This document shows positions 4,507-63,990 of a stretch of DNA of 64,000 nucleotides, in pieces; the first letter of the stretch is position 1, and each line of letters begins with the position of its first letter. The stretch lies in assembly GCA_020059045.1 (NCBI GenBank), contig JAGVCW010000021.1, positions 27,821 through 91,820 of the forward strand, given 5' to 3'. The position numbers and the translations under genes were made by a program. Source of the stretch: Minisyncoccota bacterium (GTDB lineage: Bacteria > Patescibacteriota > Minisyncoccia > Phycocordibacterales > Zambryskibacteraceae). The notes under the pieces are model-generated. The model made no database searches, was not told the DNA's origin, and saw only the letters and a program-made list of their open reading frames with translations.

Positions 4507-4923
4507 ATGGAGGCAGATATGTCAAAGAAACTTCGTAAGCAAGTATTGGGCGAGGCTACAACAGTTGTGCGTCGCGTAACATCCGTGCCACAGCGTGAGC
4601 TAGCAGAGTCAATAGGGATTGATATAAGCAATTGCACAATTGAAAATGCAAAACCAGTTATTGCTAATCGGCTTAGAGACGAGGCTTGGGAACTTGTAGA
4701 AAGGAACAGAATAGTTCCAGGATTAAAGTGTCTTTGTGATGGCGTACCATGCATTGTACAAAAGATTGGTAGTACAGCCCGCGGGTGGGGTAACCCTGGT
4801 GCGATAGTTGTAGTTCGTAAGCTTACTGAGCGTCCATGGACCGGCCATGTACGTCCATCGAGACTTACTGAATTCGATTACTCTCACCCAGTTTCCGTCG
4901 AGCCTAGAACCGCTGCCCCATAA
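4507..4923 (+). CDS. Hypothetical protein
   Basis: I set the start to the internal ATG at 4507 (MEADMSKK..). A GCTGC/GCAGC hairpin plus T-run follows the stop. Confidence 0.45.
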   Translation: MEADMSKKLRKQVLGEATTVVRRVTSVPQRELAESIGIDISNCTIENAKPVIANRLRDEAWELVERNRIVPGLKCLCDGVPCIVQKIGSTARGWGNPGAIVVVRKLTERPWTGHVRPSRLTEFDYSHPVSVEPRTAAP

Positions 4924-5305
4924 TTTAGGAGCAGCTTTTTTCTTACCTGTTTTTGATTGAACAACTGCAATTCTCCAAGGATCTTTGGATAATTTTCGTT
5001 ATCCCGTTTTCATCCCCAGGATATTCACGATTTTTTAACCTTAAGTTTGACTATTCTACGCTCTCTGTTATGATGTTTCTCACGCTTTTCTCGATAGTAG
5101 TTTTTGGCTTTCCACGCTAGTTGCGGGACGAAACTTGGCCAAAATTTGCAATCAGTTGAGGCGATACTGTCCTTGCTTTGACAGGGAATTTTTTGTTTAT
5201 AAAAAGCATTATTAAAAGAAATTATTATTAGTAGCTCATTTGTATTAGTTGCTTCGGTCCGCTCGTTCTCGCGCAGCGAACCAAAGTAGTTATTACCACA
5301 TTATT

Positions 5306-6514
5306 ATGGCAGATTCACAAGCGTTTGATCGTTCCAAGCCTCACGTAAACGTGGGAACAATTGGTCATGTCGACCACGGCAAGACGACTCTCACAGCAAG
5401 TATTCTTCACATCCTTGATATGAACAAGGATAAGGGATATGGAGCTCGTGTAGAAGCTATAGACAAGATTGATAGTGCCCCAGAAGAGAAGGCCCGCGGT
5501 ATTACTATCGCTCTTCACCACTCAGAGTACTGGACCCCAAATCGTCACTACGCGCACATTGATGCTCCAGGTCACGCCGACTATATAAAGAACATGATTA
5601 CAGGTGCTGCCCAGATGGACGGCGCAGTACTCGTGGTTGCCGCAACTGACGGTGTTATGCCTCAGACTCGTGAGCACGTTCTACTTGCTCGCCAGGTTGG
5701 AGTGCCCAAGATCATAGTGTTTCTTAACAAGTGCGACATGGTTCCTGATAAAGAGCTTATAGATCTCGTGGAAGAAGAGGTTCGTGAACTTCTCACAAAG
5801 CAAGGTTTTGATGGTGCTAATACTCCGATTATCCGTGGTTCAGGTCTCAAGGCACTTGAAGCTAAAGCAGCGGATGACGAGTGGGCAATGAAAGTAATGG
5901 AACTTGTAAACACGCTCGATACTTTCATTCCAATGCCAGTTCGAGAAATCGACAAAGCATTCCTTATGCCAGTTGAAGACATCTTCTCTATTGAAGGTCG
6001 AGGCACGGTGGTAACAGGAAGAATTGAGAGAGGTCAAGTGAAGGTGAACGAAGAGATTGAGGTTATCGGTCTCAAGGACACTGCAAAGACTGTAGTCACA
6101 GGTATCGAAATGTTCAATAAGCAGCTCGATTCAGGTATGGCTGGAGACAATGCTGGTATTCTTCTCCGAGGATTGAAAAAGGAGGACATTACACGTGGTC
6201 AGGTTCTTGCAAAGCCAGGTTCAGTTACACCTCATACGGAGTTTGAATCAGAGGTCTACATCTTGAAGAAGGAAGAAGGCGGACGCCACACGCCATTCTT
6301 TACTGGTTACAAACCACAATTCTATGTTAGAACTACAGACGTTACAGGTGAAGTAACTTTGCCTGAGAAAGTAGAAATGGTTATGCCAGGAGACACAGTT
6401 ACATTCAAGGTCAAACTTGTAGCTCCAGTTGCGCTTGAAGCTCAACAGAGATTTGCTATCCGAGAGGGTGGTAAGACTGTTGGAGCAGGGGTGGTTACGA
6501 AGATAACGGCTTAA
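5306..6514 (+). CDS. tuf: Translation elongation factor Tu
   Basis: [42 protein letters not shown] set the start to ATG 5306 inside the longer TTG-initiated ORF. Confidence 0.97.
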
Positions 6515-6639
6515 CAAGTTGAGAAGTTTAATAAGTTGTATAAATTTAATAAGTTTGAATTCAAAACTTATTAAACTTATAAGCACTAGCCAAGTCAGGC
6601 AGATGCGGAACTTATGTAACTTAATAACTAGTTCATTAC
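6515..6639. repeat. Long AT-rich hairpin spacer between tuf and rpsJ
   Basis: Built from inverted TTAATAAGTT / AACTTATTAA words and centred on GAATTC near 6563. Confidence 0.5.
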
Positions 6640-7026
6640 ATGCCCAAAGCAAAAATAAAAAAAGAAGCTCCTAAGAAAAAGAAAAGTGACTCCAAGGTGA
6701 GTAAGGCTAAAGAAGAGACTGTCTCAAAGCTACGTATTCGAGTCCGAGCCTATGAGTACAAAATTCTTGATGTATCTGTAAAGCAGATCATAGACACAGC
6801 ACTAAGGTTTGACGCCCAAGTGCTTGGTCCTATACCGCTTCCAACAGAAATCAAGAAATATACTGTCAATCGTTCCTCATTTGTGTACAAAAATGCGCGA
6901 GAGCAGTTTGAAATGAGGATTCATAAGCGATTGATAGATATAGTAAACCCTACTCCGAAGTTGATTGAGTCACTTACCAACTTGTCCCTTCCATCAGGAG
7001 TGAACATAGATGTGAAATTGATGTGA
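6640..7026 (+). CDS. rpsJ: 30S ribosomal protein S10 with a Lys-rich N-terminal extension
   Basis: S10 core ([13 protein letters not shown]..) after about 25 extra K-rich residues. The stop is TGA. Confidence 0.93.
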
Positions 7027-7208
7027 TAGAGAAATAACGAACGAAGTGAGTATATTTCTCATCATCCCTCCCCACTTTCACTGTTGATATTAAAAGAATT
7101 ACTTAACACTGAATGGCCGATTTTAGCTAAAGTTATTTATTAATGTCGTTAGTGAAAGTGGGGAGGGATCACGATTGTTTCTAACTCGCTTCGCTCATAA
7201 GAAAAAAC
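7027..7208. repeat. Family-B nested hairpin element, copy B1 (rpsJ-rplC spacer)
   Basis: Outer arms are AACGAACGAAGTGAGT and AACTCGCTTCGCTCAT. The inner stem is a perfect 19 bp (ATCCCTCCCCACTTTCACT / AGTGAAAGTGGGGAGGGAT). Confidence 0.75.
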
Positions 7209-7817
7209 GTGAAATTTATCCTCGCAAAAAAGAATAGAATGTCAGAAGTCTTTACTGAGAGTGGTTTGGTAATTCCTGTTACTATTCTTTCTGCTACTCC
7301 TATGGTGGTAACTCAGATGAAAGATGAGTCGACCGACGGGTACAAAGCTGTACAAGTAGGATTTGGTACACGCAGAGAAAAGAGAATAAACAAGGCGGTA
7401 AAAGGGCATACCAAGGAGCTTGGCAATTTTCTAAAGCTAAAAGAATTTCGCCTCAAGGATGATACATTTGTCCGCGGTGACAAGATAGATGTTTCTGTCT
7501 TTACTGCAGGAGATGTGGTTGAAGTCTCAGCCATTTCTAAGGGTAAAGGTTTCCAAGGTGTCGTGAAGCGCCACGGATTTGCCGGTGGTCCACGAAGTCA
7601 TGGGCAGAAACACTCAGAGCGTGAGCCAGGATCTATCGGCGGAGGATTGCGTACACATGTTCCGAAAGGTATGCGCATGGCAGGGCGAATGGGTGGCGAT
7701 CGTATAACCGTAAGGAATCTTAAAGTTGTCGAGGTTAATCCTACAGAGAATATTATTTTAGTTTCTGGCGCGGTGCCGGGGAGAAGAGGAACGATTGTCG
7801 AAATCAGAGGTAAATAA
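7209..7817 (+). CDS. rplC: 50S ribosomal protein L3
   Basis: GTG start. KGKGFQGVVKRHGFAGGP region, and position within the S10 operon. Confidence 0.93.
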   Translation: MKFILAKKNRMSEVFTESGLVIPVTILSATPMVVTQMKDESTDGYKAVQVGFGTRREKRINKAVKGHTKELGNFLKLKEFRLKDDTFVRGDKIDVSVFTAGDVVEVSAISKGKGFQGVVKRHGFAGGPRSHGQKHSEREPGSIGGGLRTHVPKGMRMAGRMGGDRITVRNLKVVEVNPTENIILVSGAVPGRRGTIVEIRGK

Positions 7818-7888
7818 GTTGTAGATGTTCTAAATGTTATATATGTCTGACAATTACAACAACTAGAACAATTACAACAATTAGAACC
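7818..7888. repeat. Family-A hairpin element, copy A1 (rplC-rplD spacer)
   Basis: Imperfect arms GTTGTAGATGTTCTA.. and ..TAGAACAATTACAAC around the apex ATGTCTGACA. Confidence 0.7.
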
Positions 7889-8659
7889 ATGGACACAACA
7901 GTTTATAACCAAAAAGGTGATTCAGTAGGGAAGATTAAGATTCCTGAATCAGTTTTCGGCGTGAAGTGGAATTCTGACATGGTTCACCAAGTTGTGACGT
8001 CCATGACATCTAGTGCGCGCAGAAACACGGCTCATACAAAGACTCGTGGGGAAGTACGGGGAGGAGGCAAGAAGCCTTGGAAGCAGAAGGGTACAGGACA
8101 GGCTCGTCACGGCTCGACTCGTTCACCAATATGGGTAGGAGGAGGTGTGGCACACGGTCCAAGAAACGATAAGAATTATGATCGCAAGGTGAATCGCAAA
8201 ATGAAGACCAAGGCTCTGTTTGCTATACTTTCTAGAAAGCTAAGTGATGGAGAAATAATTTTTATAGATGCGATTACAATGGGAGAAGCGAAGACAAAGA
8301 ATGCAATCAATATTATTTCAAATTTGAGAAAAATTGAGGGTTTCGATAAGATCTTTAATAAAAAGAAAAACAGTGCTCTCATTACTCTTGGCGAGAAAGA
8401 CGATTCTATAACAAGAAGTTTTAAAAACATAGGGAACGTGAGTGTCGATGAAATTCGTAATATAAACCCAGTTACACTTTTAAATTACAAAGCTCTCATC
8501 ATTTTAAATCCAGAAGCGTCTCTTCGATTACTTGAATCAAGGCTTAAGCAGAAAGCTACAGGTGATGCAGAAGGAGTGATAAAGAAAAAGTTTACAGCTA
8601 AAAAGAAAGGAGCTACAACAAAGAAAAAAGTAGTAGCTGCAAAGCCAAAGTCTTTATAA
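7889..8659 (+). CDS. rplD: 50S ribosomal protein L4 with a Lys-rich C-terminal tail
   Basis: GGGKKPWKQKGTGQARHGS core. The 256 aa include about 50 extra basic C-terminal residues. Confidence 0.93.
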   Translation: MDTTVYNQKGDSVGKIKIPESVFGVKWNSDMVHQVVTSMTSSARRNTAHTKTRGEVRGGGKKPWKQKGTGQARHGSTRSPIWVGGGVAHGPRNDKNYDRKVNRKMKTKALFAILSRKLSDGEIIFIDAITMGEAKTKNAINIISNLRKIEGFDKIFNKKKNSALITLGEKDDSITRSFKNIGNVSVDEIRNINPVTLLNYKALIILNPEASLRLLESRLKQKATGDAEGVIKKKFTAKKKGATTKKKVVAAKPKSL

Positions 8660-48739: not shown

Positions 48740-48802
48740 AATTTCTTTCTAATTAATAATTTGAAACTACGTTTAGTATATCAAGTTATGCAAGAATATT
48801 TG

Positions 48803-48876
48803 TCCACCCTCCACGATTTGAACGTGGGACCCTCGAGGTATAAGCTCGATGCTCTAACCAACTGAGCTAAGGGTGG
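48803..48876 (-). tRNA. tRNA-Ile with a genomically encoded UAU anticodon
   Basis: Hand-folded cloverleaf: CCACCCT ta GCTC agttggtta GAGC a TCGAG CTTATAC CTCGA gggtc CCACG ttcaaat CGTGG AGGGTGG a. No CCA is encoded. Confidence 0.8.
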
Positions 48877-56284: not shown

Positions 56285-57073
56285 TCAAAAACTTAAGAAC
56301 TCAGGTTTCTGTCTAAATGCAGCTGACAAACCGACGGATTTACCGCGGTAGTCGTCGCTATAGCTGGTGATAGCGAGACCTCGATGATCAAAGTCGCCAA
56401 CAGCGACACGGGCACCGAATGAGTCGACATTGATGCAACGAACGTAGATCCCTTCAAACAAGCGCTCATCGGTGGCAAGAAAGTGACCGATTATGGTGTA
56501 AACCATGATCTGAGCAGTCGGGAGTTCCTCGTTTTTTGAAAGGAGTGCCAACTGGCCTTCCAAGGTTTCCCAGACTGAGTTGGGAATTGGTTCCTTGCGG
56601 ACCAACTGCCATGTGGGTATACCTTTGTCTGCCGCGAACGGCAGCTTTTTATACCAGTTCATGCTGTAAAGCAGGGTTTGGTCGGGCAGGTTCTTATCAA
56701 CGCCATGGATGTCGAGAATAGACAGTGGGAAAACTGCAACGAGAATGTGCGTATCCTTACAGGATTCGAGCACACTCTTTTTGAACGGAATTTCGCCGAG
56801 ATCGGAAAGCTGTTGCTTCGTGGCTTTAACCCCGAAGTACTTGATCGCCTCCTCGATACCGAAGAAGTTCCTTCCCATGATCACTCGTGCAAGTATCTGT
56901 GATTCGGAAGGTTCATAACCACCGCTGATCATGAATCGTGCAACTTTTCCCACGAATTCAGGGTCCGTATTGAGGCGGTCGGCGACTTCGTCAGCGTTGT
57001 TCCTGAAAGCCCTCCATAAGCGTTGATTGGCGGCATTGATGTCACCATGGGGGACTTGAGTCCATACTTTCAT
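56285..57073 (-). CDS. Orphan protein (262 aa)
   Basis: I set the start to ATG 57073 after AAAGGTG. TTGCTT-17-TATAAT on the minus strand near 57250-57290. The leader contains a 12-bp inverted repeat. Confidence 0.5.
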   Translation of the reverse strand: MKVWTQVPHGDINAANQRLWRAFRNNADEVADRLNTDPEFVGKVARFMISGGYEPSESQILARVIMGRNFFGIEEAIKYFGVKATKQQLSDLGEIPFKKSVLESCKDTHILVAVFPLSILDIHGVDKNLPDQTLLYSMNWYKKLPFAADKGIPTWQLVRKEPIPNSVWETLEGQLALLSKNEELPTAQIMVYTIIGHFLATDERLFEGIYVRCINVDSFGARVAVGDFDHRGLAITSYSDDYRGKSVGLSAAFRQKPEFLSF

Positions 57074-57439
57074 GTTTTTCACCTTTTCTGTTAGCCTTTT
57101 TGAAGTTATCTTGAAGGCGACTAGAAAGTGGGAATACGATCCCGGTTTACGTCTTGCCTCGGATGAGACAAGCTTTTTAAGTCCTAATATTTTAAGGCCC
57201 AGAAAGCTTGTCTCACTTGAGTTTTGTATGAAGAGCAGTTGTTTATGTTCTTTTTGTATTATACTATATATGAGCTTAAAAAGCAAGGGCTATTTCCGGC
57301 CTATAAATATGCCGTTTTTTGGTTGTAATATGTCTTGACATGTATGTTATAATATGCTATGTTGCAAGTGGATTCAGCGGTATGTCCTTGGGCAATTTCG
57401 CTTCAGGGGTGAGTCGCTGACCAAAACAAGGAGCTAGGC

Positions 57440-58015
57440 ATGTCATTTGGAAAAGATTACCGTCTCGTTGGTGAAGCTACAGTGACCGGAGAGAAGTTTG
57501 GTGCTGGAACAACCTTCTGGTCATCTCTTGTACATACCGACATTATCGGTCGGATCAGGCTGATGGTTGAACACTACGCCATTGTTGGGAAGTACATTGG
57601 TCAGCCACTGGTCTATGATCGGGAAGAGCTCATTGCATGGCTCACTGATCGATCTAGCAACTGTCTCAAGTGTTACCCGTATTACGTGGATGATGAGAAA
57701 ATGTTAATAACGGACCAACCCCGTTTCATTTCCGAGTTTTTTTCCAAAATGAAGGAAATCGGGCTCGGGTGGATGGAGTTCCGGCTGTATTACGGTAGGC
57801 TAATCGACAAGTATTTTCAAAGAAATACCAAGTCCCTCGAATCCGATTGGGATGAGAAGGAAATCTTTCGCTCAGAACCGCGTCCTGGGGCACTCTTCGA
57901 TGATTGCATAACTCCCCAACGCTTCGTTGATGTTCTGGATGAGATCGTAGCGAACCGGCGACGGATACACGAGCTTCCTGTTGCACGGGCTGTGCCCACG
58001 TATAGCTATAAGTAA
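57440..58015 (+). CDS. Orphan protein (191 aa)
   Basis: ATG follows AAGGAG, with TTGACA at 57335 upstream. A strong terminator follows. Confidence 0.5.
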   Translation: MSFGKDYRLVGEATVTGEKFGAGTTFWSSLVHTDIIGRIRLMVEHYAIVGKYIGQPLVYDREELIAWLTDRSSNCLKCYPYYVDDEKMLITDQPRFISEFFSKMKEIGLGWMEFRLYYGRLIDKYFQRNTKSLESDWDEKEIFRSEPRPGALFDDCITPQRFVDVLDEIVANRRRIHELPVARAVPTYSYK

Positions 58016-58053
58016 AATCGTACTCGGCGAAATCGAGTAGAGAAATCATATCG

Positions 58054-58083
58054 GTCGGTAGGCCAAAAACCTACCGACTTTTT
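58054..58083 (+). terminator. Intrinsic terminator
   Basis: GTCGGTAGG / CCTACCGAC stem followed by TTTTT. Confidence 0.75.
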
Positions 58084-58099
58084 CATGTAAATTTATTTT

Positions 58100-58560
58100 G
58101 AGAGAGAGTGGGAATTTCTCCCTCGACTCAAAATTGTTTCATTTTACTTAAAATAGATTGAAAAGGGATTCGGTCACAGATAATTTTCTGTTGAAAAAGT
58201 TCACCCCACAAGTTTTTGCATACTTGCAAAACTTGCAGGCCCACCTCAGCTCGACAGCTTCCGGTCTTGCGAAAGCTTCAACTATTCGCTTTCTCACCCC
58301 GCCTCGCGCCGTCGCGCTCCGGCTTTCGAATCCCACCTCTCACGCGCCGACGTCCGACTCGAACAGCACATTTGGCTGTTCTTTCCGGTCGTTGCGGAGA
58401 CGATGCCCGGAACTTTGAACCAAAAATACGGCTCAAATTCGAGGATCTTGATAAAAGTATACAGAAACTAAGAGCTATCTACAAAGTCCACCCTGAATGG
58501 TTTGAAGTACCAAAACCCAAATCAACCAAAGGTAAGAACGAGGTAGACTATTCGATTTAG
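58100..58560 (+). repeat. Composite tRNA-Ser-debris plus coding-fragment module, copy 1
   Basis: Contains GAGAGAGTGGGAATT (antisense tRNA-Ser 3' remnant), a 36-nt block at 58167-58202, and TTCGAATCCCAC (58325-58336). A conserved 53-codon segment at 58396-58554 ends in TAG at 58558. Confidence 0.8.
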
Positions 58561-58570
58561 CACTGGTTAT

Positions 58571-59497
58571 TTAGTAACTTTGTGCAAGAGTATTATCAAA
58601 TACATGCTCGTATCTTTCGGGCGAACCAAATCCATGCTCATCAAAATCATCAAGTAAATCTTTTAGCGGAAATGACCTGGCGCCATCTTTTCTCCTGACT
58701 ATGCAGCGACCACCTTGTTTAGTACCAAAAGGATGCCTTTGAGGACTGACCACATCTTCTTGGATATAAGGCTTAGAAAAGACCTCTTTATTAAAGTAAG
58801 CAATGACTTTCTTGTGAACCGTATCTAAATAATTCTTTCCTGAATCATCCCCGTTGAAATATTCCCCATGCACCAATCGATTTCTTAACCCATTTTCATC
58901 TGCAAATATTTCTGTTGCTAAATCCTCACCTAAAATCTTTGTATATAAATTTATTGACTTTTTGAATACAGATTTATTCCTTTTCCGAGCCATTGCTTCC
59001 ATTGCAGAAAACATCAAAAGAAGTTTTGCAGAATAACCTGAAGCGTTTACAGCGTCATTCCAGTAATGATAGAAGGGTTCTGGAATTTCCTCATGTTTTA
59101 GGAGTTCTACTAGACCGTCTCGTTCTTTCTCCATAAACATCAACCCTCCTGATTTCACATCTTGACTGTACTCAAAAAACGCAATGTCTCTACTGAGATC
59201 ATGAACTATAAAAGGTTCTCTTGTGAATTCTATGTACGACTGACAAATTAATGATATGCGTGGAATGAGTTTGTTCAACCTTGCTCTAAAAACATTTATT
59301 GCGTCTATAAAGTTTTCAGCTTCAATTTCACAGGTTGCAATCCAAGCATCTGAATCTTTCCAGCCATCTCTAAAATTAAAGTCACAATGGGAAAATTCCA
59401 AACCTTCAATTTCAAACGAAGCAGGTTTTTCTTTCACCTCCATTACTGCGCAATGAGCAAGTGTGAGAATTTTATGTTCTATTCTGTATTTTTTCAT
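58571..59497 (-). CDS. Orphan protein with a HEPN-like RNxxxH motif (putative RNase or Abi-type)
   Basis: GLRNRLVHGEY sits in a helical C-terminal half, after a beta-rich N-terminal half. The start codon abuts the guaA stop (TAAATG). Confidence 0.4.
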   Translation of the reverse strand: MKKYRIEHKILTLAHCAVMEVKEKPASFEIEGLEFSHCDFNFRDGWKDSDAWIATCEIEAENFIDAINVFRARLNKLIPRISLICQSYIEFTREPFIVHDLSRDIAFFEYSQDVKSGGLMFMEKERDGLVELLKHEEIPEPFYHYWNDAVNASGYSAKLLLMFSAMEAMARKRNKSVFKKSINLYTKILGEDLATEIFADENGLRNRLVHGEYFNGDDSGKNYLDTVHKKVIAYFNKEVFSKPYIQEDVVSPQRHPFGTKQGGRCIVRRKDGARSFPLKDLLDDFDEHGFGSPERYEHVFDNTLAQSY

Positions 59498-61030
59498 TTA
59501 TTCGTACTCAATTGTAGCTGGAGGCTTTTGAGTAATATCGTAAAGAACGCGATTTACCCCTCGCACCTTGCCGATAATCGCGCTGGATATTTTTTCCAGC
59601 AGCTCATTTGGGATTTTGTGCCAGTCAGCACTCATACCATCTATCGAATCAACTGCGCGAAGCGCGATCACGTATTCATACGTACGACCATCGCCCATAA
59701 CACCTACCACTTTAACTGGCAGTAGTGCGGCAAAGGCCTGCCAGATCTTTTCGTACTCTCCTGCTTTGCGTAGCTCCTCAATAAATACCGAATCAGCTTC
59801 GCGGAGGATTTGAAGCCGCTCTTCGGTGATTTCTCCGACAATACGTACTGCAAGTCCTGGACCTGGGAATGGATGCCTCCAGAGAAGTTCTCTTGGAAGT
59901 CCTAGAGTTAAACCTACGCGACGCACTTCATCTTTGTACAAATCCTTTATGGGCTCAAGTATTTTGAAGCCCATCTTTTCGGGAAGCGTGAGGTTGTGAT
60001 GGCTCTTGATTTTCGCTACCGTTTTAGATGTTGAAGCAGACTCAATACGGTCGGGATAAATAGTACCTTGAGCTAAATATGCGATTGTATGTTTTTTGAG
60101 TTCATTTTTAATTGCTTTCTCAAACACTTCAATAAAGCTGTGGCCGATGATTTTACGTTTCTGCTCTGGGTCGGAAATGCCCTTTAAGCGTTTTAAGAAG
60201 AGAGGGCTTGCATCTATGACATGTAGTTGTCTGAAGCCATTTTTGCGTAGGTATGAAGCTACTTGTTCAACCTCCCCCTTACGAAGAAGCCCTGTATCGA
60301 CAAAGACTGCATGTAGGCGATTGCCAATGGTCCTATGGATAAGTGTAGCTGCTACCAGTGAATCGACGCCGCCTGAAATACCCACAACTACGTGCCTGTC
60401 TCCAACCTCATTTTTAACCTCCGCGACGATATTTTCTGTCACTGAGTTAATCCTCCAGTTCTTTTTGGCTTTACATATTGAGAATAGGAAGTTCTTAAGT
60501 AATTTTTCTCCATGCTGAGTATGGGTGACCTCTGGATGGAACTGGATGCCGTAGAAGTTGTTTTGTAAATCAGCAAAAGCAGCATATTTGCAGCCAATAG
60601 TAGATGCTGTCTGTTTAAACCCCTTAGGCAAAGCTGATACTTGGTCACCATGCGAGAACCACACAACTTCTTTTGAGGAGAGCGTCTGGAAAATTCCGCT
60701 CTTGTTTTTGATTGCAAGATTTTCTTTGCCGAACTCTCGATGTTTCCCTTTGGCAACCTTGCCACCAAGCATTTGCGCCATGACTTGATGCCCGTAGCAG
60801 ATGCCAAGAACTGGAATACCGATTTTGAATATTGGTTTGTCGGGTCTAGGACTACCTTTTTCTAGGACTGATGCAGGGCCACCTGAAAGGATGATACCAA
60901 CAGGATTATGTTTCTGTATTTCAGAAGCAGGAGTATCAAAAGGCAAAATCTCGGCTTTTACACCGAGATCCCGCACGCGTCTTGCAATGAGATGGGCAAA
61001 CTGGCTTCCGAAATTGAGGATTATGACCAT
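59498..61030 (-). CDS. guaA: GMP synthase (glutamine-hydrolysing)
   Basis: GATase region (GICYGHQ), the ATP-PPase SGGVDS loop, and C-terminal ..PPATIEYE. I set the start to ATG 61030. Confidence 0.95.
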   Translation of the reverse strand: MVIILNFGSQFAHLIARRVRDLGVKAEILPFDTPASEIQKHNPVGIILSGGPASVLEKGSPRPDKPIFKIGIPVLGICYGHQVMAQMLGGKVAKGKHREFGKENLAIKNKSGIFQTLSSKEVVWFSHGDQVSALPKGFKQTASTIGCKYAAFADLQNNFYGIQFHPEVTHTQHGEKLLKNFLFSICKAKKNWRINSVTENIVAEVKNEVGDRHVVVGISGGVDSLVAATLIHRTIGNRLHAVFVDTGLLRKGEVEQVASYLRKNGFRQLHVIDASPLFLKRLKGISDPEQKRKIIGHSFIEVFEKAIKNELKKHTIAYLAQGTIYPDRIESASTSKTVAKIKSHHNLTLPEKMGFKILEPIKDLYKDEVRRVGLTLGLPRELLWRHPFPGPGLAVRIVGEITEERLQILREADSVFIEELRKAGEYEKIWQAFAALLPVKVVGVMGDGRTYEYVIALRAVDSIDGMSADWHKIPNELLEKISSAIIGKVRGVNRVLYDITQKPPATIEYE

Positions 61031-61079
61031 AGTAAATAATATCACTAATTATTGGCCAAACGAACCTTATTTTACCTTG

Positions 61080-61106
61080 GTTCAAAGTTGCCAATCTGGC
61101 GGAGAG
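61080..61106. repeat. 27-bp att-like core, copy 1 (tRNA-Ser 3' end plus 17 nt of downstream flank)
   Basis: GTTCAAAGTTGCCAATCTGGCGGAGAG is identical to 62654-62680. Confidence 0.9.
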
Positions 61107-61186
61107 AGTGGGATTCGAACCCACGGTTCCGGTAAAGGAACGACGGTTTAGTAAACCGTTGATTTAAACCACTCATCCATCTCTCC
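61097..61186 (-). tRNA. Class II tRNA (Ser-type long variable arm); anticodon loop UUACUAA reads ACU
   Basis: GGAGAGA tg GAT gagtggtttaa ATC a ACGGT TTACTAA ACCGT, variable arm cGTTCCtttaccGGAACc, GTGGG ttcgaat CCCAC TCTCTCC g CCA. Confidence 0.8.
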
Positions 61187-62265: not shown

Positions 62266-62622
62266 TTAGGATAATTTACTTCCAAGTATTACCGAGTCGC
62301 TTTTAGGCTCAATGAGTACCCATCCATCACCTGCACTATTTTTAAAACCAAGAGTGAGAACTTCTGACCTAAATGGACCAACTTGCTTGGGTGGAAAATT
62401 AACAACACAACACACAAGCGAATTCAGAAGCTCTTCCTTGGTATGTGCTCCTACTGCCTGAACGCTCGATTGTTTTATTCCAATTTCAGTACCGAAATCG
62501 ATCTTGAGCTTATATGCAGGCTTTCGGGCTTCTGGAAAATCGGAAACCTCGACAATTTTACCAACTCGAATATCGACTTTTTCAAAATCGTCAAATGTTA
62601 TGGTTTTAGGTTTGTTGTCCAT
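62266..62622 (-). CDS. CsaA/Trbp111-like tRNA-binding-domain protein
   Basis: FEKVDIRVGKIVEVSDFPEARKPAYKLKIDFG..VCCVVNFPPKQVGPFRSEVLTLG is the OB-fold tRNA-binding pattern. Confidence 0.8.
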   Translation of the reverse strand: MDNKPKTITFDDFEKVDIRVGKIVEVSDFPEARKPAYKLKIDFGTEIGIKQSSVQAVGAHTKEELLNSLVCCVVNFPPKQVGPFRSEVLTLGFKNSAGDGWVLIEPKSDSVILGSKLS

Positions 62623-62653
62623 AATTTGTTCAAAATGGCCTTACTTTGCTTAA

Positions 62654-63073
62654 GTTCAAAGTTGCCAATCTGGCGGAGAGGGAAGAATGATTCGGTCACG
62701 AATCTTTTTCTGTTGAAAAAGTTCTCGACCTGGATTTCGAATCTGTTTCGAGTCTTACAGACTCTGTACACCTTTCGTATCGTGCTCGTAAACTGCGCGC
62801 GATGTACTCAAGGTTTTCGAATCTCCCACGTCCCGCTGTGGTGGGACTCCTCTCTCGCAAAATCACATCCCTTAAGAAGGGATAGATTTTGGCGGGGATG
62901 ATGCTCGGAACTTTGAACCTAAAACACGGCTCACGTTCGAGAATCTTGATAAAAGTATACAGAAACTAAGGGCTATCTACAAAGTCCACCCTGAATGGTT
63001 TGAAGTTCCTAAGCCGAAATCAGATAAAGGCAGGAATGAGGTTGATTACACTGAGCTTAACCAACCTTCATGA
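62654..63073 (+). repeat. Composite tRNA-Ser-debris plus coding-fragment module, copy 2
   Basis: Starts with the 27-bp att-like core. Then a 36-nt block (62689-62724), TTCGAATC-T-CCCAC (62816-62829), and the conserved coding segment at 62894-63052, open from 62876 to TGA 63071 with no ATG/GTG/TTG. Confidence 0.8.
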
Positions 63074-63990
63074 GCAGAATCGGCTGCTTTCGTATTGTCG
63101 AAAATAGAGTCAATGCGACGGATTATCGGAGCGTCGAGTGCAGAACCAACGTGCAAGAGAAATTCTTTTGTCGTTTCTAATATTAACTGTGCAATTGGCA
63201 GTATTTGTTGAGGTCTTGGGCGCCCCCATTCAAATTTTGGACTGAATCCTTGATCGCTGTATTCAAGATGATGGTCTAAAATGTCCGTCCAGTTACCATG
63301 AATGCTACGAGAACTACCGCCGTAAAGAGCAAGATACGTAGACTCAAGTCCTACGTCCCTAGTTCTCTCATAGAAGTTTTTATTTCCCCATTCTTTCGGT
63401 TGGTTTGGTAATACATCATCAATTTTTATTCCTGACTTCCTCGCGACTTTTTCAATAGATGAGAGCATTCGGTGCTCAATGTGTAAACTTATTCCTTTTC
63501 TATTTTCAATGTTTTTTGAAATTAAATCTCGTAATTTTCTCTCATTGCGTAATGCGTATTTTACGTATGAGTCGAACAGTTCTGTTGAATCATTTTTAAT
63601 TAAAAACTTTATGTTTACTACGTTTTCAAATAGAAGACGCGAAATAATAAAAACGACTTCTTGCCGTTTTTGACAAATTTGATCTAAATGAGCAGATAAG
63701 AGTTTGGAAAGACGTACAAAGTTGCCACCAATGATAGCTTGATCTCGAGTCCACTTCTTTGAGTCCGGGGGCAATACACCAGCAGCGAGCGCTACTATTG
63801 AAGCTGTTTCTTTCATCAGCTCTACTGACAGATGCATAAAATCGTCTTCGTTCTTTAGAGAATCAAGCTGTTCAGGAGTTATTTCGATGTGATTGATGGT
63901 CTCGAGTATCTCACCAATATCCGCTAATTCAGTTTCTTTACTTTCATTCATGAATGTCGTGCTTACCGTCGTTATAAAGTTTACGACCAT
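63046..63990 (-). CDS. Orphan helical protein, possibly Abi-like
   Basis: 314-codon ORF whose 3' end overlaps module copy 2 convergently by 28 nt. NRKGISLH fits Rx5H and GGSSRSIHGNW is also present. I cannot place the family. Confidence 0.45.
   Translation of the reverse strand: MVVNFITTVSTTFMNESKETELADIGEILETINHIEITPEQLDSLKNEDDFMHLSVELMKETASIVALAAGVLPPDSKKWTRDQAIIGGNFVRLSKLLSAHLDQICQKRQEVVFIISRLLFENVVNIKFLIKNDSTELFDSYVKYALRNERKLRDLISKNIENRKGISLHIEHRMLSSIEKVARKSGIKIDDVLPNQPKEWGNKNFYERTRDVGLESTYLALYGGSSRSIHGNWTDILDHHLEYSDQGFSPKFEWGRPRPQQILPIAQLILETTKEFLLHVGSALDAPIIRRIDSIFDNTKAADSAHEGWLSSV

Follow-up and report, generated by a model that had tools for sequence, protein, structure and literature searches.

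The DNA considered here, referred to as the window, is the whole 64,000-nucleotide (nt) stretch of contig JAGVCW010000021.1 (positions 27,821 to 91,820 of the forward strand; assembly GCA_020059045.1) from a Minisyncoccota bacterium, and the element in question is one of its listed open reading frames (ORFs), an ATG-initiated gene that occupies 58571..59497 on the minus strand and encodes a protein of 308 amino acids (aa). This focal gene follows directly upon guaA (59498..61045, minus), the backbone gene for GMP synthase (Pfam GATase and GMP_synt_C). A preliminary description of the locus, made by a model from the sequence alone, had reported that the ATG abuts the guaA stop codon, and the window sequence does contain this exact TAA|ATG junction, in which the TAA immediately adjoins the ATG with a gap of 0 nt; no promoter or terminator was predicted there. 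On the other side of guaA lies a tRNA-Ser gene (61097..61186, minus; found by ARAGORN and Rfam), and beyond the focal gene a short repeated element, which we call D1 (58394..58560, plus; 54 codons and a stop, recognized as a repeat and by its peptide), runs convergently with it, leaving 10 nt between the two stop codons. The tRNA thus heads an array that reads tRNA-Ser > guaA > cargo > D1. Its anticodon is ACT; bacterial AGY codons are normally read by a tRNA-Ser with anticodon GCU, and an A at position 34 is unusual. With a GC content of 0.364 (0.291 at third codon positions, GC3), the focal gene has the second-lowest GC among the 40 window ORFs of at least 150 aa, the mean of which is 0.434, guaA itself having 0.445.

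As far as its sequence indicates, the focal ORF is an intact member of a previously undescribed family with a single architecture of about 300 aa. A word-indexed search of 5.8 billion proteins returned 205 homologs (best E = 5.6e-199) from Levybacteria, Parcubacteria, Moraniibacteria and other Patescibacteria, nearly all full-length (303-318 aa; 47-95% identity), every one labelled 'hypothetical' and none with a Pfam domain. An exhaustive search of 1.84 billion cluster representatives with a hidden Markov model recovered 349 clusters (clustered at 50% identity) at E <=1e-3, 158 of them at E <=1e-30, and the architecture of ~300 aa is common to almost all of the 349. The gene is therefore not the orphan for which it had first been taken. 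The family occurs in 45 of 185,579 species genomes, and its carriers are scattered over bacteria of the candidate phyla radiation (CPR), Nitrospirota, Nocardia, Micavibrio, Omnitrophota, Elusimicrobia, Binatia and one Woesearchaeote (a DPANN archaeon). Frameshifted or truncated copies, found at L034 716-1637, L043 8061-9016, L047 7157-8073 and L051 2765-3292 (L numbers denote surveyed loci on other contigs), would be consistent with a dispensable or costly gene. Literature searches on the family and on HEPN defence in CPR bacteria returned nothing specific.

Several lines of evidence indicate that the protein contains a HEPN domain. In its AlphaFold2 model (predicted local distance difference test, pLDDT, 76) an alpha/beta N-terminal domain (residues 1-114) is followed by a helical middle part (residues 123-239, with helices 123-133, 140-151, 155-171, 181-198, 204-209 and 223-239) and by a beta/alpha tail. 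The corresponding features, all on the minus strand, are the N-terminal alpha/beta domain, residues 1-115 (59153..59497), an antiparallel sheet with one long helix that may be a sensor or substrate-binding module; the predicted HEPN domain, residues ~120-245 (58763..59140); the predicted catalytic Rx4H motif R205-N-R-L-V-H210 (58868..58885); the Ex3[KR] motif E167-A-M-A-R171 in the preceding long helix (58985..58999); and P252-Q-R254 (58736..58744). The block GLR-x-R-L-V-H-G-E-Y is invariant across 37 close homologs, and when the alignment is extended to 111 members, down to 25% identity, the only invariant residues are R205, H210 and R254 (each 111/111). Residue 167 is acidic (E or D) in 110 of these 111 members, with K or R at +4 in 57; position 206 is H in 70, N in 36, Q in 4 and I in 1; and P252 is conserved in 100, R254 sitting in a low-confidence loop of the model. 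The preliminary description had singled out GLRNRLVHGEY, which is present, as a HEPN-type signature, and had named variation of its R and H among homologs as one result that would count against this reading; since both residues are kept throughout, this objection falls away.

Active HEPN domains are recognized by an Rx4-6H motif at the end of helix 3, by a polar residue (mostly N, D or H) after the R and by an upstream acidic residue in helix 2, often as Ex3[KR], helices 2 and 3 being separated by an insert that varies (PMC3710099). In the focal family the spacer is four residues long, the residue after R is polar and helix 2 carries the acidic residue. Placement agrees as well: in the model, R205-H210 forms a short helix that closes a kinked third core helix, directly before the loop to the last helix, and E167 lies within helix 155-171, after which comes the indel-rich segment 172-180. 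Because of these matches in residue conservation and motif placement a HEPN domain is very likely, one forming a family of its own that every curated model misses, and the central helical part is predicted to be a catalytically competent HEPN ribonuclease using R205-x4-H210 and E167. Comparison of structures supports the assignment, as a model of the domain alone matches chiefly HEPN structures. Furthermore, a permissive Pfam scan of the 111 members gave sub-threshold matches to five HEPN-clan families in 8 of them (HEPN_MAE_28990 three times, best E = 4.8e-4; HEPN_Swt1 twice; HEPN_Apea, HepT-like and HEPN_RiboL-PSP), the other weak matches being almost all one-off hits to unrelated families.

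The position of the gene is explained by the slot in which it lies. Orthologs of guaA with 92-94% protein identity are found on four other contigs (L056, L069, L087 and L116), and in all four a different gene begins 2-7 nt after guaA, with D1 behind it. These slot genes encode proteins of 169 aa (L056, 5189-5698), 329 aa (L069, 3216-4205), 188 aa (L087, 5156-5722) and 177 aa (L116, 762-1295); the 188-aa protein contains NRDKLFAH, an Rx5H motif, and may be encoded by another HEPN gene. Counting the window, five unrelated genes in total occupy the position behind guaA and start 0-7 nt past its stop codon, so that it is the slot that accounts for the abutting start codon. A gap of this size leaves no space for a promoter, and the slot cargo is therefore probably co-transcribed with guaA by read-through and translational coupling, as the distances suggest; this co-transcription carries no functional implication. 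Among 48 non-redundant loci encoding the family, at which all neighbours were clustered, guaA lies upstream in the window only. Because homologs elsewhere lack this linkage and close relatives fill the slot with other genes, the association with guaA is one of position and not of function, and a functional tie to this essential purine gene is not supported. A 95%-identical homolog, P0001 (L006/L082), stands in an unrelated context, and nucleotide identity of 92% between it and the window begins exactly at the ATG and continues to ~177 nt beyond the stop codon, ending at the end of D1. The focal gene is, by these signs, an accessory, horizontally exchanged gene outside purine metabolism.

At a number of other loci the surroundings of the family are associated with restriction-modification (R-M). 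Its neighbour at L001 is a Type I R-M system; at L006 the gene follows an MvaI R-M system and an AAA_15/21 ATPase, and at L008, L018, L020 and L041 it is placed within Type I operons, between hsdM and hsdS/hsdR. At L041 the gene immediately preceding the focal homolog (5799-7604) encodes a Type I-like N6 methylase that carries, as a fusion, a Schlafen AlbA_2 domain at its C terminus. At L004 the focal homolog is flanked by EcoRI-methylase/GmrSD-HNH genes on one side and a gene for a DUF3644 protein on the other; the GmrSD_N/HNH gene, the homolog and the DUF3644 gene (4891-7963) form one co-directional array. DUF3644 is a HEPN family (PMC3710099), and two distinct HEPN-type genes here stand in a row after a type IV restriction enzyme. 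In the set of 150 neighbours lying no more than two genes away from a family member, the top Pfam/PADLOC families are N6_Mtase/Eco57I, AAA_21/AAA_15, Methylase_S, ResIII, phage integrase, GmrSD_N, RadC and DUF5677, the leading ones being of R-M, Abi (abortive infection) or ATPase type, and on raw neighbour counts the family is thus placed near known defence genes, as is generically expected of a defence gene. Clustering of the neighbours at the 48 loci revealed no conserved neighbour, partner or antitoxin gene, in agreement with the earlier failure to find an antitoxin ORF, and no nucleotidyltransferase of the MNT type was among the frequent neighbour families.

The far boundary of the slot, D1, is itself a recurrent element, its two window copies matching each other as a repeat at 58394-58550 and 62892-63048. 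A second copy in the window (62892..63052, plus; found by tblastn, 87% identical to the first) is convergent with a gene for a 314-aa DUF5677 protein (63046..63990, minus; Pfam PF18928, E = 2.9e-24), a second low-GC (0.387) defence-type cargo that ends at a D1 copy. This protein carries an RSIHGNW motif and has a weak match to the PADLOC model DitA (E = 0.0012); DUF5677 recurs adjoining focal homologs and as D1 cargo, and a DUF5677 ORF was picked as an antiphage candidate in a 2025 preprint (PMC12632615). Further copies follow other genes at L006 (4693-4863 and 6927-7088), L035 (491-631) and in L053-L132, and more than 351 were found in metagenomes from groundwater and sediment, with up to 3 per 10 kb. 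Read on the strand that does not encode the cargo, D1 specifies a peptide of 54 conserved codons, GDDARNFEPK.RLKFEDLDKSIQKLRAIYKVHPEWFEVPKPKS.KGKNEVDYSI*, and its variability at the three codon positions (0.118/0.090/0.253 in 66 unique copies) means that it evolves as coding sequence. Conservation sets in abruptly at TGGCGG|GGACGATGCC and extends as far as the stop codon; TGGCGG, the outer edge, reads CCGCCA in reverse complement and is similar to a tRNA 3' end. D1 has no conserved start, and the frame upstream of it has a median length of 15 codons and is not conserved; database proteins that contain D1 are all CPR hypotheticals of 56-100 aa. The possibility that D1 is the 3' end of a longer parent gene was ruled out by this short, non-conserved upstream frame together with the small size of the proteins. 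A comparison of D1 with the PDB gave no match.

A convergent ORF of at least 100 aa ends within -60 to +40 nt at 57 of 96 D1 copies. The resulting cargo comprises 46 unique proteins in 38 clusters, including two more members of the focal family and another DUF5677 protein, and all of it that can be annotated is of defence type: Type I/IIG methylases, specificity subunits, HsdR, OLD/PtuA/AriA-like ATPases, GmrSD, HEPN_AbiU2, DUF4238 and HNH. The toxin or defence role first proposed for the focal gene is consistent with this cargo and with the R-M, GmrSD, ATPase and DUF3644 neighbours described above.

The slots are further linked to tRNA-Ser genes. At 29 of 50 D1 loci scanned, in the range L054-L129, a tRNA-Ser (CGA, TGA, GGA or GCT) is found 1.6-4.3 kb upstream of D1, in the same orientation as the cargo, giving the layout [tRNA-Ser >][1-4 genes >][< D1] with intervening genes of R-M or Abi type, and six focal-family loci, the window included, have a tRNA-Ser at most 4.6 kb upstream. 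The 60 ORFs from the islands, that is, the intervals from tRNA-Ser to D1, have R-M genes at the head of their 25 most frequent Pfam families, and no integrase or recombinase occurs in that list; a PIN_8 match was also seen among these ORFs. One of the repeats within the window, D2, has the same connection. It consists at one place of the last 10 nt of the tRNA-Ser and a 45-nt downstream spacer (61052..61106, minus) and at another of an orphan tRNA-Ser 3' end (CTCTCCGCCA) with the same spacer (62626..62680, minus), upstream of the gene for a CsaA-like tRNA_bind protein (62266-62622), and D3 is a 48-nt repeat located 3' of both D1 copies (58155-58202 and 62677-62724). At L006 the end of a D1 copy (...CCCGCCA) is followed by the same spacer as in D2. 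D2 and D3 were both probably left behind by earlier cassette or island insertions, and the tRNA-Ser > cargo > D1 layout looks like a CPR-wide defence hotspot architecture, which literature searches did not find described, whether as D1-bounded, tRNA-Ser-linked cargo slots or as tRNA-Ser hotspots in Patescibacteria.

The features that the preliminary description had gathered under a tRNA-rich neighbourhood do exist, namely the tRNA-Ser (ACT), the repeated fragment of its 3' end and the CsaA-like protein. Their use as a hint to the substrate fails: given a tRNA-Ser-linked hotspot, the tRNA-rich neighbourhood is the footprint of the hotspot and not evidence on the substrate of the putative enzyme. 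Likewise, the tRNA-like debris, which had been put forward as a conceivable RNA partner, was rejected in this role, as it resolves into the tRNA-Ser 3' end with its flank and into D1, a codon-periodic element under coding selection that is common to many cargo types; Rfam searches downstream of the focal gene at gathering and permissive thresholds returned nothing. Operon-like fusion to an essential gene and nearby tRNA features invite a reading in terms of function, and what they reflect here is hotspot architecture. We also note several features of the window outside the array: a tRNA-Ile with anticodon TAT (48802-48876, minus); two ORFs downstream of the slot, 56285-57286 (minus, 333 aa) and 57440-58015 (plus, 191 aa), with a GC content of 0.47-0.48, above that of their surroundings, and no match in any profile library; and a strong terminator-like hairpin at 58053-58079 (plus).

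Taken together, the focal gene is likely to be a promoterless, single-gene HEPN ribonuclease defence cargo of the abortive-infection type, carried in the guaA-D1 slot downstream of tRNA-Ser. The slot between guaA and D1 would exchange defence cargo, of which the focal gene would be one item. Dimerization through the HEPN domain would create a composite Rx4H active site, as in HEPN biology generally (PMC3710099) and with ApeA and PrrC as precedents, and the protein's own alpha/beta N- and C-terminal module would keep it inactive until an infection cue appears. Phage infection would then lead to metal-independent RNA cleavage leaving 2',3'-cyclic phosphate ends, and to translation arrest. Such a single-gene system would require no antitoxin gene, and by analogy tRNA is a plausible RNA target.

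A number of observations weigh against this explanation. No curated HEPN-clan profile detects any family member at threshold, the 8 of 111 matches all being sub-threshold. Searches of Pfam and PADLOC, which the preliminary description had proposed as checks, gave no match for the window protein, Pfam even at E = 10, nor did NCBIfam, and PHROGs gave noise only; sequence searches of the PDB, with the single sequence and with a profile, likewise returned noise and no relative. Whole-chain Foldseek found nothing in the PDB at E <=0.001, and hhalign comparison of the domain profile (effective sequence number, Neff, 2.3) with the slot gene product of L087 and the DUF3644 protein of L004, both as single sequences, gave uninformative probabilities below 1%. 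Recognizable defence neighbours occur at only a minority of homolog loci, most neighbours being unannotated. Finally, codon 38 (59384-59386) specifies Cys in the window protein, whereas P0001 (95% identical) and altogether at least 90% of the close homologs have Trp there, and the window copy may be a mildly impaired allele.

Of the other explanations, the one that survives best, although improbable, is that the protein is the toxin of a toxin-antitoxin module that stabilizes the island by addiction, with an antitoxin that has escaped recognition, be it an RNA, a small ORF or the accessory module of the protein itself. Across the 48 loci there is neither a conserved neighbour nor a recurring MNT-type gene; D1 accompanies at least 38 unrelated cargo families and so is not a specific antitoxin, and it is missing at most homolog loci. 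Slightly less probable still is that the helical domain is no HEPN ribonuclease and that the R-x4-H block is part of some other helical fold whose role would be in binding or catalysis, the defence-island context being incidental. The silent profile searches would fit this; the invariance of R205 and H210 and the preference of the domain-only model for HEPN structures argue for a HEPN-type domain, as the preliminary description had supposed. That the protein is a housekeeping partner of guaA, such as a nucleotide-sensing or RNA-processing factor of purine metabolism, is highly improbable, since the co-transcription implied by the TAA|ATG junction without predicted promoter or terminator is outweighed by adjacency to guaA at one of 48 loci, unrelated genes at the same position in close relatives, presence in 45 of 185,579 species and atypical GC.

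A bolder reading, which we hold to be possible and on balance doubtful, is that the focal gene is one promoterless cassette of a cassette-exchange system without integrase, not described before and widespread in CPR bacteria. This system would swap defence genes into slots downstream of tRNA-Ser, here behind guaA, with D1 closing each slot, and the focal family, equipped with a sensor domain of a new type, would constitute a new single-gene HEPN system against phages. D1 would then either encode a small protein required in capture or in expression, or supply portable homology by which recombination could exchange cassettes, and its outer edge (...CCGCCA) would mimic a tRNA 3' end. To our knowledge, little is known, apart from R-M, of how ultra-small CPR bacteria resist phages. 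A family of at least 349 clusters that lacks annotation, is missed by current defence finders and probably constitutes a compact single-protein HEPN ribonuclease effector is of interest in this respect, and its invariant residues R205, H210 and R254 are ready targets for mutation. In addition, the guaA-cargo-D1 and tRNA-Ser-cargo-D1 architectures make the D1 peptide a searchable anchor that could serve to harvest unknown defence genes from CPR metagenomes, and raise the mechanistic question of how cassettes are exchanged without an integrase among the frequent island gene families.

The family is new and unnamed, but its kind is well known, that of single-protein HEPN Abi and defence effectors tied to R-M islands. 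With AbiU2, AbiJ, AbiV, ApeA/BMEI1217 and EC042_2821/DUF3644 (Anantharaman et al. 2013, PMC3710099) it shares one Rx4-6H HEPN domain combined with a family-specific accessory domain, the lack of an antitoxin gene, location in or beside Type I R-M operons and patchy horizontal spread. However, none of the profiles of these families detects it at threshold, and it differs from them by its distinct alpha/beta domain and C-terminal tail, by the additional invariant R254 and by its CPR-centred distribution. The preliminary description had compared its N-terminal half with that of ApeA. A beta-rich alpha/beta N-terminal part is indeed seen in the AlphaFold2 model, but the likeness to ApeA is not supported: ApeA (the system of Gao et al. 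2020) has ~580 aa arranged as N, Mid and split-HEPN parts, is mostly alpha-helical and assembles into decamers or dodecamers (10.64898/2026.01.26.701840; 10.64898/2026.03.20.713152), whereas the focal protein has 308 aa and lacks this architecture. Nor do the profiles indicate membership, as PADLOC gives no match and HEPN_Apea (PF18739) is matched by 1 of 111 members (E = 0.0018). ApeA cleaves the tRNA anticodon loop after activation by a ligand (10.64898/2026.01.26.701840; 10.64898/2026.03.20.713152), and ligand-activated anticodon cleavage is, by analogy, a plausible working model for the focal family.

PrrC, encoded in the EcoprrI Type Ic R-M locus, offers a parallel in placing a HEPN ribonuclease gene among hsdM, hsdS and hsdR, as at L008, L018, L020 and L041. 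However, an ABC-type ATPase domain forms the N-terminal part of PrrC, which is under the control of the R-M complex, whereas the focal family is mostly found outside Type I operons and has no NTPase; no NTPase domain or P-loop match, of the ABC/Rad50-like kind that marks PrrC and RloC, was found in the focal protein. The toxins of HepT/MNT, a type II/VII toxin-antitoxin system, and RnlA/LsoA differ in domain order and size, and the focal family has no adjacent MNT or RnlB/Dmd-type antitoxin gene. As regards the slots, no integrase is found among the 25 most frequent island families, and D1 is coding-like rather than an attC-like hairpin, in which they differ from tycheposons (10.1101/2020.12.28.424599) and integron cassettes. 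What they share with these systems and with core-gene-flanked defence hotspots is variable defence cargo directly downstream of a tRNA, repeated tRNA 3' fragments, cargo without promoter space and a conserved 3' boundary element. In this comparison the D1-bounded, tRNA-Ser-linked slots, characterized here in part, are a more unusual result than the gene itself.
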